Virus record (IMG/VR): IMGVR_UViG_2609459832_000013
Source: a virus
Taxonomy: Duplodnaviria; Heunggongvirae; Uroviricota; Caudoviricetes
Strand: one strand, 5' to 3'
Length of the DNA stretch: 6,121 nt
Shown here: piece after piece, positions 1,007-4,485 of the stretch
How the letters are laid out: every line of letters begins with the position of its first letter
Numbering within the stretch: the first letter of the stretch is position 1
Notes under the pieces: model-generated
What the model was told of the DNA's origin: nothing
Seen by the model: the letters and a program-made list of their open reading frames with translations, nothing else
Databases searched by the model: none
Translations under genes and position numbers: made by a program

Positions 1007-1313
1007 TCACCCTCCTGAGGGTTGGTAATTAAGGAGTTCTCCACGGGTGAACATCCGGCACTGACAGTTTACTGAAAGGATATATCCCTGAAAAGTCAGG
1101 GCATAACACGAAAGCGTACGGCGAAGGCCTTCACCTATGAGGCTTGTCGTTAAATTTAATTCGACCGTACGCTTCCGGTTGTGGCAATCCGCGAAATGGC
1201 GCGGCGGTAAGTATGGCGGGGTTATTCCTTCCCCGTTGAGGACACCGGGTTGTCAGGTTGACCATACGCTTAAGTGACAACCCCGCTGCAACAACCCATG
1301 TTGATTACCTTTT

Positions 1314-1353
1314 GGCGGGTATCCGTTTTTTGTTTTCCCTTGTGATACCCGCC
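1314..1353 (+). terminator. Candidate intrinsic-terminator-like hairpin: 10-bp perfect GC-rich stem with a 20-nt loop
   Basis: GGCGGGTATC (1314-1323) pairs perfectly with GATACCCGCC (1344-1353). On the + strand it is followed by CCTTTTAAAG, a short T tract only. The large loop and weak T tract make terminator function uncertain. Confidence 0.25.
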
Positions 1354-1363
1354 CCTTTTAAAG

Positions 1364-1527
1364 TGAATTTTGTGATGCGGTGAATGCGGCTCAGCGCACG
1401 CGGAACAGTTAAAACAAGGCCAGTTGACTTCCGTATTGGTTCTTATGGGTGGGTTCTCTGTATCCGGCGTTAATTGTTAACTGGTTAACGTCACCTGGAG
1501 GCACCAGGCACCGCATCACAAAATTCA
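1364..1527. repeat. Perfect 19-bp inverted repeat whose arms flank a 126-bp segment
   Basis: Left arm TGAATTTTGTGATGCGGTG (1364-1382) is the exact reverse complement of right arm CACCGCATCACAAAATTCA (1509-1527). A tandem near-copy TGAATGCGG (1381-1389) abuts the left arm. The right arm ends 6 nt before the GAGGA Shine-Dalgarno (1533-1537) of the gene starting at 1545. Confidence 0.9.
1469..1489. promoter_or_regulatory. Three direct GTTAA(C) half-site repeats, operator-like
   Basis: GTTAA at 1469-1473, 1476-1480 and 1484-1488 (spacings 7 and 8 bp), inside the segment bounded by the 19-bp inverted repeat. A near-identical two-repeat copy CGTTAATGGTTAAC lies at 360-373, upstream of the ATG at 388. 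Confidence 0.2.
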
Positions 1528-1544
1528 TTGTTGAGGACGCGATA

Positions 1545-1733
1545 ATGGAAACGTTATTACCAAACGTTAATACGTCTGAAGGTTGTTTTGAAATTGGTGT
1601 CACTATCAGTAACCCAGTATTTACTGAAGATGCCATTAACAAGAGAAAACAAGAACGGGAGCTATTAAATAAAATATGCATTGTTTCAATGCTGGCCCGT
1701 TTACGCCTGATGCAAAAAGGATGCTGGCAATGA
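1545..1733 (+). CDS. Hypothetical small protein (62 aa)
   Basis: Internal start of the 1449..1733 track ORF. ATG at 1545 is preceded by GAGGA (1533-1537) with a 7-nt spacer, whereas the ATG at 1449 has no Shine-Dalgarno and would read through the inverted repeat and GTTAA repeats. Stop TGA at 1731-1733 overlaps the next start (ATGA). Confidence 0.5.
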   Translation: METLLPNVNTSEGCFEIGVTISNPVFTEDAINKRKQERELLNKICIVSMLARLRLMQKGCWQ

Positions 1734-1933
1734 ATACTACATTTGCACTTGTTCTGACGGTTTTTCTTGTTTCCGGTGAACCGGTTGACATGGTTACTGG
1801 CGTATACGGCTCAATGAAAGAATGCATGGTTGCCGCAGCGGAACAGAAAATTCCCGGTAACTGTTATCCGGTCGATAAAGTTATTCACATGGATAATAAC
1901 GAAATCCCGGCAGGACTTAAAACAGCACCGTAA
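1730..1933 (+). CDS. Hypothetical small protein (67 aa) with a hydrophobic N-terminal segment (possible signal peptide or membrane anchor) and two cysteines
   Basis: ATG at 1730 overlaps the upstream stop (ATGA at 1730-1733), with AAGGA at 1716-1720; an alternative ATG lies at 1721. The N-terminus reads MNTTFALVLTVFLVSG. Stop TAA at 1931-1933. Confidence 0.5.
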   Translation: MNTTFALVLTVFLVSGEPVDMVTGVYGSMKECMVAAAEQKIPGNCYPVDKVIHMDNNEIPAGLKTAP

Positions 1934-2013: not shown

Positions 2014-4485
2014 ATGAGTAAAGTCTTTATTTGCGCCGCCATTCCGGACGAACAGGCAATAAAGGAAGAAGGTGCAGTCGCTGTAGCCACTGCCATTGAA
2101 GCCGGCGACGAACGTCGCGCCCGTGCCAAATTTACCTGGCAATTCCTGGAGCAATATCCGGCTGCTCAGGACTGCGCTTATAAATTTCTTGTCTGCGAGG
2201 ATAAACCCGGCATGCCCCGCCCTGCCATCGACTCCTGGGATACCGAATATATGCTGGAAAACCGCTGGGATGAGGAAGGCGCTTCCTTTGTCCCGGTCGA
2301 ACCAGAATCCGATCCGATGATCGTCAATTTTGACAAGCTGTCCCTTGAAGTACAGAACGCGGTCCTGGTTAAGTTCGGTACATGTGAAAACATCACCGTT
2401 GATATGGTGATTAGCGCGCAGGAATTGTTGCAGGAAGACATGGCAACATTCGACGGACATATCGTTGAAGCGTTGATGAAAATGCCAGAAGTTAACGCCA
2501 TGTATCCGGAGCTTAAGCTGCATGCCATCGGGTGGGTTAAGCATAAATGTATTCCTGGTGCCAAATGGCCCGAAATTCAGGCAGAGATGCGCATCTGGAA
2601 AAAACGTCGCGAAGGTGAACGCAAGGAAGCCGGAAAATACACGTCTGTTGTTGATCTCGCCCGCGCCAGAGCCAATCAACAGAACACTGAAAATTCAACA
2701 GGAAAAATCAACCCGGTCATTGCTGCCACTCATCGCGAATACAAGCAGACATGGAAAACACTGGATGACGAACTGGCCTACGCTCTCTGGCCTGGTGATG
2801 TGGATGCCGGAAACATTGACGGCAGCATCCATCGCTGGGCAAAAAATGAAGTTATCGACAACGACCGCGAAGACTGGAAGCGTATCTCGGCATCAATGCG
2901 CAAACAGCCTGATGCCCTTCGCTACGACCGCCAGACTATTTTTGGCCTTGTCCGTGAACGTCCGATCGACATTCACAAAGACCCTGTGGCACTGAACAAA
3001 TACATTACTGAATACCTGACTACAAAGGGCGTGTTTGAAGATGAAGGAAGAAATCAGAGCGCAACTGATACTCTCTCGTCGCCAGTACCAGAAACTGATG
3101 CAGTGGAAACGGCAATTCCGGACAACGAAAAAACCGAATGCAAAGTGGAAGTCGAACCATCTGTAGAACGTGAGGGGCCGTTCTACTTCCTCTTCACCGA
3201 CAAGGATGGCGAAAAATACGGTCGCGCAAACAAACTTTCTGGTCTGGATAAGGCGCTGTCTGCCGGGGCTACTGAAATCACGAAAGAAGAATATTTCGCC
3301 CGCAAAAACGGTACATACTCAGGTTCACAACAAAATACTGGTGCATCTGACACGACCGCACAACCAGGGTCAGTAAAAGTTACCGCTGACGAAGTAAACA
3401 ACATTATGCAGGCAGCCAATATCAGCCAGCCTGACGCCGATGAACTGCTTGCAGTATCACGTGGTGAATTTGTTGAAGGGATTAGCGACCCGAATGATCC
3501 GAAATGGGTGAAGGGAATTGAAACCCGCGATTCTGTGAACCAGAACCAGCAAGAAACGGAACAGAACGGCCAGAAAGCGGATCAAAACAGCCCAAATACG
3601 CAACAAAACGAGCCAGAAACGAAACAATCCGAACCAGTAGCGCAACAGGAACCGGAAAAGATCTGCACCGCCTGCGGTCAGACCGGCGGCGGCAACTGCC
3701 CTGATTGTGGCGCGATGATGGGCGACGCAACATACCAGGAAACGTTCGATGACGAGAATCAGGTCGAAGTTCAGGAAGACAATTCGGAGAAAATGGAAGG
3801 CGCTGAACATCCACACAAGGAGAATGCTGGCAGCGCTCAGGACCACGCCAGCGATAGTGAAACTGGCGAGACGGCAGATCCCTTAATTGCGGTGAACAGT
3901 CATCACATTATCACATCCACCAGCAGAGTGTGGACTCACCTGTCGGTCGACCTTGAAACGATGGGAACAAATCCTGATGCACCAATCAACTCTATTGGCG
4001 GTAAATTCTTTGACCCGACAACCGGAGAGATGGGGCCGGAATTCAGCAAAGCTATCGATCTGGAAACATCTGGCGGAATCATCGACCGGAAAACAATAAA
4101 GTGGTGGGCGAAGCGATCACGCGAAGCGCAATCTGCCATTTTTACCGATGAAATCCCGTTAGATGACGCTCTACTGCAATTACGGGAATTTATCAACGAA
4201 AACTCCGGCGAAAGCTTTGTCCAGATCTGGGGAAATGGAGCCAACTTCGACAATGTGATTTTACGCCGTTCATATGAACGGCAGGGGATCCCCTGCCCGT
4301 GGCGTTACTACAACGATCGCGATGTGCGCACAATTGTTGAACTGGGAAATTCCATTGGCTTTGATGTCAGAATGGCTATTCCATTCGAAGGTGTACCCCA
4401 CAATGCACTTGATGATGCACGTCACCAGGCAAAACAAGTTTCAGCAATCTGGCAAAAACTGATCCCAAGTCAGGCTGATTTTTAA
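2014..4485 (+). CDS. Large prophage exonuclease (823 aa): RecE-like (exonuclease VIII-like) non-catalytic scaffold fused to a C-terminal DnaQ-like DEDDh 3'-5' exonuclease domain
   Basis: Single 2472-nt ORF with TGAGG upstream of ATG 2014. The C-terminal ~180 aa carry the three DEDDh motifs: LSVDLETMG (3940-3966), WGNGANFD (4228-4251) and HNALDDARH (4399-4425). A Q/N/E-rich linker (~3535-3660) precedes a C-x2-C-x7-C-x2-C zinc ribbon (3664-3708). The central segment (ASRGEFVEGISDPNDPKWVKG, CxxC region) resembles my recollection of E. coli Rac RecE; this is not verified by alignment. Confidence 0.9.
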   Translation: MSKVFICAAIPDEQAIKEEGAVAVATAIEAGDERRARAKFTWQFLEQYPAAQDCAYKFLVCEDKPGMPRPAIDSWDTEYMLENRWDEEGASFVPVEPESDPMIVNFDKLSLEVQNAVLVKFGTCENITVDMVISAQELLQEDMATFDGHIVEALMKMPEVNAMYPELKLHAIGWVKHKCIPGAKWPEIQAEMRIWKKRREGERKEAGKYTSVVDLARARANQQNTENSTGKINPVIAATHREYKQTWKTLDDELAYALWPGDVDAGNIDGSIHRWAKNEVIDNDREDWKRISASMRKQPDALRYDRQTIFGLVRERPIDIHKDPVALNKYITEYLTTKGVFEDEGRNQSATDTLSSPVPETDAVETAIPDNEKTECKVEVEPSVEREGPFYFLFTDKDGEKYGRANKLSGLDKALSAGATEITKEEYFARKNGTYSGSQQNTGASDTTAQPGSVKVTADEVNNIMQAANISQPDADELLAVSRGEFVEGISDPNDPKWVKGIETRDSVNQNQQETEQNGQKADQNSPNTQQNEPETKQSEPVAQQEPEKICTACGQTGGGNCPDCGAMMGDATYQETFDDENQVEVQEDNSEKMEGAEHPHKENAGSAQDHASDSETGETADPLIAVNSHHIITSTSRVWTHLSVDLETMGTNPDAPINSIGGKFFDPTTGEMGPEFSKAIDLETSGGIIDRKTIKWWAKRSREAQSAIFTDEIPLDDALLQLREFINENSGESFVQIWGNGANFDNVILRRSYERQGIPCPWRYYNDRDVRTIVELGNSIGFDVRMAIPFEGVPHNALDDARHQAKQVSAIWQKLIPSQADF

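Follow-up and report, generated by a model that had tools for sequence, protein, structure and literature searches.

An inverted repeat in the dicF-dicB spacer of a Qin-type prophage, probably an RNase III-cut helix closing an RNA domain related to STnc100/PasD

Genes and inverted repeat of the dicF-dicB region

The stretch of viral DNA analysed here (6,121 nucleotides; the window) aligns in its dicF-dicB region to dicF-dicB of the Qin prophage of Escherichia coli K-12, with K-12 dicF corresponding to window 1309-1354. The large ORFs of the window are all on the plus strand, and the small RNA region and the genes 3' of it comprise the following features, given 5' to 3'.

1109-1177, plus strand: upstream hairpin with 13-nt arms (1109-1121 and 1165-1177), found by an inverted-repeat search; the 5' end of the 190-nt DicF of K-12 maps within it
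1309-1359, plus strand: small RNA at the DicF position, a divergent variant, with terminator hairpin (1314-1323/1344-1353) and U-tract (1356-1359), from alignment with K-12 dicF and folding
1533-1733, plus strand: Shine-Dalgarno sequence and dicB, the first gene 3' of the element (GAGGA 1533-1537, ATG 1545, stop 1733), from Pfam (DicB, E = 3e-40) and the RefSeq annotation of homologs
1730-1933, plus strand: DUF1482/YdfD-like protein
2014-4485, plus strand: 823-aa ORF with a C-terminal 3'-5' exonuclease domain
3' of the exonuclease ORF, plus strand: excisionase (xis) and tyrosine integrase (int)

The region 1000-1700 (dicF, the element described below, and dicB) is matched in 4736 of 5426 complete E. 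coli genomes, mostly in multiple copies, with dicB annotated there; the exact window is in no complete E. coli genome of this set, the best full-length match having 96.4% identity. In the 823-aa ORF, which occupies the position that RecE takes in Rac, Pfam finds just a C-terminal Rv2179c-like 3'-5' exoribonuclease, and ~640 N-terminal residues are without a family match. A 77-aa ORF on the minus strand (773-1006), to which Pfam assigns no family, is wedged among plus-strand genes near the 5' side of the small RNA region.

The Rfam DicF model, which gives K-12 DicF 76.7 bits, has no match at E<=1 to the small RNA at 1309-1359. This RNA keeps the terminator hairpin (1314-1353), and its 5' part and loop are unlike those of K-12 DicF and resemble variants in two relatives (L271 and L277); it may have a different set of targets. 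The 5' end of the 190-nt DicF precursor of K-12 is RNase III-dependent (PMC10448788), and 190 nt counted back from the annotated K-12 DicF 3' end leads to window 1172, in the 3' arm of the upstream hairpin, which probably serves as the operon's first RNase III site and gives rise to the 5' end of the ~190-nt precursor.

Ten nucleotides past the equivalent of K-12 dicF begins a perfect inverted repeat, which thus fills the dicF-dicB spacer of this lambdoid early-left operon. Its arms (1364-1382, TGAATTTTGTGATGCGGTG, and 1509-1527, CACCGCATCACAAAATTCA) are 19 nt long, 100% complementary and 126 nt apart, the coordinates being the same as those from which the earlier note on this DNA set out. That note had also placed the repeat just upstream of the ribosome-binding site, which is correct; the right arm stops 5 nt before GAGGA (1533-1537), however, and not 6. 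It is the longest inverted repeat of the whole window, the second-longest perfect one having 13 nt. The expected number of such 19-nt pairs by chance is 6.8e-5 by analytic calculation, close to the earlier estimate of ~1e-4, and the longest non-overlapping perfect inverted repeat in each of 200 dinucleotide-preserving shuffles was 10-15 nt and never 19, so that the repeat is far beyond chance. Together with the upstream hairpin, the stem formed by the repeat brackets the small RNA between two stems of RNase III type.

Covariation of the helix and its enclosed domain

In RNA, the 19 Watson-Crick pairs of the repeat are joined by a G.U pair (G1363.U1528) and an A-U pair (A1362-U1529), which makes a helix of 21 contiguous pairs. 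Folding of 1364-1527 gives -68.7 kcal/mol on the plus strand (z = -6.4) and -58.8 kcal/mol on the minus strand. The arms of K-12 are identical to those of the window except for two C-to-U changes, each facing a G, which form tandem G.U pairs in plus-strand RNA and would be mismatches in DNA or in minus-strand RNA. The G.U pairs and the fold, better by 10 kcal/mol, both point to plus-strand RNA. Among 255 copies, which are not phylogenetically independent, the variants of the arms are mostly of the wobble type; a compensatory change from C-G to U-A exists with both of its intermediates, and a minority of copies has one mismatch.

The alignment used to assess covariation holds 25 long-stem relatives, redundant copies excluded, which come from viral contigs and from E. 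coli, Citrobacter, Klebsiella, Pseudescherichia and Shigella. In the closing helix (P1), the outer 12 pairs are formed in 97.7% of cells, with changes on both sides in 8 of the 12; the inner 9 pairs are paired in 98.7%, and 4 of the 9 covary. The structure as a whole is paired in 97.8% of cells of this alignment, compared with 32-41% after partners are slid by 1-3 columns, and G.U pairs account for 113 of 1200 cells. Several relatives (L035, L040 and L094, Citrobacter L122 and L159, Klebsiella L133 and L152, and L139) have, at the position of P1, a helix of ~20 bp that shares little or nothing of the sequence. These comparisons of sequence support a genuine plus-strand RNA helix, selected for pairing. 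The RNA duplex that the earlier note had suggested for either strand is thereby borne out as a plus-strand helix kept by compensatory changes across the 25 relatives, and the divergence of its arms in homologs, to which that note had pointed, proves to be compensated, a few natural variants having one mismatch.

Within the helix, the plus strand can be divided into the following parts.

1362-1382, plus strand: P1 5' strand (left arm 1364-1382 with A1362 and G1363), from the repeat, fold and covariation; predicted RNase III cut between 1373 and 1374
1385-1402, plus strand: P2 hairpin UGCGGC-UCAGC-GC-A-CGCG, its sequence kept in clade B and its stem covarying relative to clade A (CCCCC...GGGG)
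1406-1412, plus strand: J2/3 pseudoknot strand CAGUUAA, complementary to the P4 loop
1413-1465, plus strand: variable P3 region, which holds TTGACT (1424-1429) and a 16-nt stretch missing in K-12
1466-1492, plus strand: P4 hairpin, stem 1466-1475/1483-1492, loop UUAACUG (1477-1483) as the 3' strand of the pseudoknot; 5 of 9 pairs with changes on both sides
1494-1508, plus strand: P5 hairpin CCUGG-AGGCA-CCAGG, where conservation within the family is highest, from alignment and covariation
1509-1529, plus strand: P1 3' strand (right arm 1509-1527 with U1528 and U1529); predicted partner cut between 1519 and 1520, leaving a 2-nt 3' overhang

The one relevant Rfam match to the window is STnc100 (RF02076) at 1366-1522 on the plus strand, with 33.7 bits and E = 1.3e-4, which is below the gathering threshold of 47 bits; the K-12 element scores 34.4 bits against the same model. 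Family members were gathered by a scan for the conserved block CACCNGGAGGCACCNGGCAC, which is found in at least 120 viral contigs, and an alignment of 62 representatives (the window and 61 relatives) contains 27 invariant columns. The family consensus has a covarying 8-bp P1 core and an invariant P5 hairpin. The P2 stem alternates between a GCGGC/GCCGC type and a CCCCC/GGGGG type, and P1 core, P2 and P5 covary between clades. Copies with the CCCCC-type P2 (clade A) score 52-147 bits and are bona fide Rfam STnc100, whereas clade B, of which the window is a member, goes uncalled by Rfam. Some clade A copies form tandem arrays of 3-5 units, ~250 nt apart, beside phage tRNA genes (L012, 2265-3380; L028, 342-1038).

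In nearly all 62 representatives, the 6-10 nt directly after P2 can pair with the apical loop of P4, in one and the same position but through more than 12 different sequence pairs (for example CAGUUAA/UUAACUG, CCAGUC/GACUGG, AUCAGCA/UGCUGAU, AGACUGACAA/UUGUCAGUCU and UGCCAGGU/ACCUGGCA). The mean pseudoknot score of matched strands is 6.55, versus 4.24 for mismatched strands, and none of 10,000 permutations reaches the observed value (43 distinct loops). In the window, 1406-1412 pairs with 1477-1483. This arrangement explains the GTTAA repeats, of which the earlier note had counted three and there are four (at 1408, 1469, 1476 and 1484): one is the J2/3 strand, and the others make the stem and loop of P4. 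The TTGACT hexamer of the same note is present at the position it gave.

On the strength of alignment and covariation, the enclosed domain is placed in the STnc100/PasD family of prophage sRNAs, as a divergent branch that falls below the Rfam threshold. A preprint of 2026, silent on dicF, dicB and RNase III, ties STnc100 to the sRNA PasD of enteropathogenic E. coli (EPEC; bioRxiv 10.64898/2026.05.13.724894). PasD is an Hfq-associated sRNA, for which alone Hfq-dependent accumulation and RNA partners have been demonstrated (PMC8550237), and PasD2 is the most abundant RNA of CsrA ternary complexes in EPEC.

RNase III processing, gene context and alternative readings

The repeat is probably P1, the closing helix of a structured plus-strand RNA of ~165 nt that occupies the spacer between the DicF terminator and dicB, and is cut by RNase III. 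The 72-nt DicF of K-12 is reported to arise by RNase III processing of the full-length mRNA (Faubladier 1990, as cited in PMC5069750 and PMC9438474). Nineteen nucleotides past the annotated K-12 dicF 3' end lies genome position 1649453, which corresponds to window 1373 and is the tenth of the 19 nt in the left arm; this placement of the 72-nt 3' end by arithmetic from two secondary sources is uncertain by a few nucleotides, and the arm tolerates ~9 nt in either direction. Table S1 of Gordon 2017 lists position 1649470 (dicF-dicB), marked as known, with 0 wild-type versus 26 rnc reads, which are low counts. This position lies beyond the arm, 8 nt into the domain, and therefore supports rnc-dependent processing of the spacer and not an exact site. 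The view of the earlier note that the repeat is an RNase III substrate was right in substance, since the left arm of the K-12 ortholog holds, by these secondary accounts, the RNase III-dependent 3' end of the 72-nt DicF, and the spacer reads are found in rnc only. RNase III processing of the K-12 ortholog is already documented, having been reported in 1990; the finding is real and largely known. The helix, its covariation and strand, the family relationship and the genomic context are established here.

A cut between 1373 and 1374 would have its partner between 1519 and 1520, according to the RNase III rule of a 2-nt 3' overhang (PMC6212723). The pairs that would lie between these cuts are G1372-C1519 and U1373-A1518, in agreement with the in vivo rule (Altuvia 2018, PMC6212723) under which both positions between the staggered cuts are base-paired and at least one of them is a G-C or C-G, the cut position itself being a predicted one. 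The 21 contiguous pairs of P1 fall within the ~20-22 bp, or two helical turns, of duplex that E. coli RNase III takes for double cleavage.

In the proposed mechanism, P1 and its domain would be transcribed on the plus strand within the early-left (dicBF-type) operon of the prophage, and P1 would be made by read-through of the DicF terminator. In the branch to which the window belongs, P1 would have been lengthened to about two helical turns and would thereby constitute an RNase III site. RNase III would cut both strands near the centre, in the window at ~1373/1374 and ~1519/1520; the outer, A/U-rich half would probably fall apart, and the inner 9 bp would hold the domain closed. Three products may be expected: a DicF species with a 3' extension of 19 nt; a folded RNA of ~146 nt (1374-1519), which would resemble the short-stemmed, stand-alone family members if released and stable as predicted; and a dicB-ydfD... 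mRNA with a leader of ~25 nt. The modelled cost of opening the Shine-Dalgarno region (1531-1550) is 9.98 kcal/mol before the cut and 9.03 kcal/mol after it, not a meaningful difference, and an effect of the cut on dicB translation is therefore without computational support.

The length of P1 separates operon-embedded copies from stand-alone copies. In 193 unique elements, many of them close relatives and not phylogenetically independent, a long P1 (at least 17 pairs) leads in 118 of 128 cases to a ribosome-binding site and ORF start within the next 75 nt, without an intervening terminator; with a shorter P1 the terminator comes first in 44 of 65, and such an ORF is present in 2 of 65. The P1 of clade A copies is 6-10 bp. 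The ORFs 3' of long-stem elements belong to at least seven families, including several DicB variants, KilR and small membrane proteins, and a DicF-like sRNA with its terminator is almost always found 5' of the element. In the Rac prophage of K-12 (L351; NC_000913.3 1418230-1418404, minus strand), a long-stem element is located between the annotated sRNA gene kilS and kilR. With the element preceding both dicB and kilR, two prophage division inhibitors share a layout of sRNA, folded element and toxin gene. For the Rac locus, Table S1 of Gordon 2017 lists NC_000913.3 1418510 (kilR-sieB spacer), 8 nt upstream of the kilS 5' end, with 0 wild-type versus 41 rnc reads, and these suggest that Rac, like Qin, has an RNase III site upstream of the sRNA; the literature search returned no RNase III data for the kilS-kilR stem.

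Other arrangements occur among the relatives. In L015 (4747-5234) and L086, four RNA elements stand in a row: DicF, a long-stem element, isrK and a C4-type antisense RNA. In L002 (3400-3655, minus strand), L105 and L115, a short-stem clade B element is followed, at once or ~100 nt further on, by a DicF-like sRNA with terminator, so that the association of the folded domain with DicF-type sRNAs occurs in either order. In L313, ~180 nt upstream of dicB, the end of an IS1 element (…ATCAGTAAGTTGGCAGCATTACC) lies in the left arm, and the outer part of the arm is lost.

A perfect 19-bp inverted repeat of DNA could also be a pair of looping operators, an invertible segment or a small MITE-like insertion, all of which the earlier note had entertained, and three dicB loci without the element might be taken to favour such readings; a function at the DNA level is nonetheless extremely improbable. 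The arms of relatives are unrelated in sequence yet complementary, with many G.U positions that are mismatches in DNA, and what is conserved of the interior is its structure, seen in the covariation of its helices and in the pseudoknot. A paired operator would have to keep the sequence of its arms, of which only the pairing is kept. The element is present in 90 of 93 unique dicB upstream regions, always in one orientation relative to the outer flanks (83 with the exact motif and 7 with point changes), and with 0 inverted among the 90 the invertible switch is not sustained. Nor is the MITE, because the flanks (TTTTAAAG / TTGTTGAG) have no target-site duplication, context and orientation are fixed, and the interior is a structured RNA. 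The clean empty site that the earlier note had envisaged in homologs was not found in the 3 loci without the element, which have their junction within the right arm (...CAUCA/CAAAAUUCA; in DNA ...CATCA/CAAAATTCA), 1-2 nt from the predicted RNase III cut; this proximity may be a coincidence or may mark a module boundary. In these loci (L289, L291 and the second dicB copy of L015), dicB is joined to a different upstream gene. It is likewise very unlikely that TTGACT (1424-1429) belongs to an internal promoter from which the dicB transcript starts, or that the long hairpin is a terminator, despite the presence of the hexamer and the great stability of the hairpin: a promoter scan found no sigma-70-like promoter anywhere in 950-2050, TTGACT sits in the variable P3 stretch that is missing from K-12, no promoter was found inside the K-12 operon (PMC10448788), the right arm is not followed by a U-tract, and there is no Rho-independent terminator from 1527 to dicB.

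An RNA with the same fold might instead act mainly in cis as a leader of the downstream gene: it could shield the dicB mRNA at its 5' end, set the time at which a small toxic protein is translated or bind a protein such as CsrA or Hfq, and RNase III cleavage would then be incidental or only degradative. Long-stem copies do stand directly before small and often toxic ORFs (DicB variants, KilR of K-12 Rac, small membrane proteins), pairing of the outer stem can continue into the Shine-Dalgarno region, and the place of the related PasD2 at the head of the RNAs in CsrA ternary complexes of EPEC fits protein binding. Short-stem members, however, stand alone, end in a terminator and have no ORF behind them, so the domain itself needs no downstream gene; selection for about two turns of perfect duplex suits an RNase III site and would be superfluous in a protective structure; and no change in Shine-Dalgarno accessibility is predicted. 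A mainly cis-acting leader is accordingly judged quite unlikely, and the preferred reading is that P1 is an RNase III-cut closing helix.

Implications and comparison with known systems

The literature search returned no description of the spacer as a member of STnc100/PasD, of the covarying pseudoknot, or of a link between stem length and embedded versus stand-alone copies. For the K-12 dicBF site, the text found contains no account of the spacer as a folded domain and no link to STnc100, and a literature text search for dicF-dicB or kilR-sieB intergenic RNAs yielded nothing further. For work on prophage sRNAs it is useful that the dicF-dicB and kilS-kilR spacers join STnc100/PasD, that the pseudoknot of the family covaries and that stem length marks context; these three results suggest how such RNAs are made and leave the basic picture unchanged. 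The same element precedes two classic prophage inhibitors of cell division, dicB and kilR. A more specific proposal, speculative and rather unlikely as it stands, would have STnc100/PasD be more than one further set of seed-pairing sRNAs, namely a compact pseudoknotted domain with a specific partner, perhaps a protein such as CsrA, that in one branch phages embed in early operons before dicB or kilR and free with host RNase III by means of the extended helix. Read-through of the DicF or KilS terminator would in that case yield three RNAs at once: the sRNA with its extension, the folded domain and the mRNA of the toxin.

Among known systems, the lambda sib element is like the stem of the window in that it belongs to a lambdoid phage with xis and int and that host RNase III acts on a hairpin of the pL-type transcript. 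The sib element is downstream of int and directs 3'-to-5' decay back into int, whereas the stem of the window is 3.3 kb upstream of int. The analogy of logic that the earlier note had drawn to sib fails, because the stem precedes the genes (dicB, exonuclease, xis and int) instead of following them. In the early mRNAs of T7 and in the lambda N leader, long intercistronic hairpins are cut by host RNase III, which separates functional RNAs, and the window likewise has a long hairpin that lies between two cistrons of an early phage operon. At the T7 sites the hairpins are simple and irregular, whereas that of the window encloses a large conserved domain with a pseudoknot, which the cut would set free as well.

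The leader of kilS-kilR in K-12 Rac (KilS, PMC8175672) has the same succession of an sRNA with terminator, a long-stem element and a gene for an FtsZ inhibitor; it differs from the window in its downstream gene (kilR), its sRNA (KilS) and its stem, which consists of 10 bp, a 1-nt bulge and 9 bp, the right arm having an extra bulged A. The closest system is orthologous, namely the dicBF RNase III site of K-12 Qin (Faubladier, Cam and Bouche 1990, as represented in PMC5069750, PMC9438474 and PMC10448788), which occupies the same position between dicF terminator and dicB, has the same arms apart from the two C-to-U changes that give G.U pairs, and has the 3' end of the 72-nt DicF in its left arm. 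The window differs in its perfect 19-bp duplex, in a P3 longer by 16 nt and in its divergent sRNA at the DicF position.

With STnc100 (RF02076)/PasD (PMC8550237; bioRxiv 10.64898/2026.05.13.724894), the window shares the GGUGAAU junction, P2, the complementarity of J2/3 to the P4 loop, the CACCNGGAGGCACCNGGCAC P5 hairpin closed by P1, and carriage by lambdoid prophages. It differs in its score (33.7 versus 47 bits) and in a P1 of 21 bp rather than 6-10 bp, and the element of the window, which is without its own terminator, is set inside an early-left operon before an ORF, whereas STnc100/PasD copies are stand-alone genes, often in tandem arrays near phage tRNA genes.
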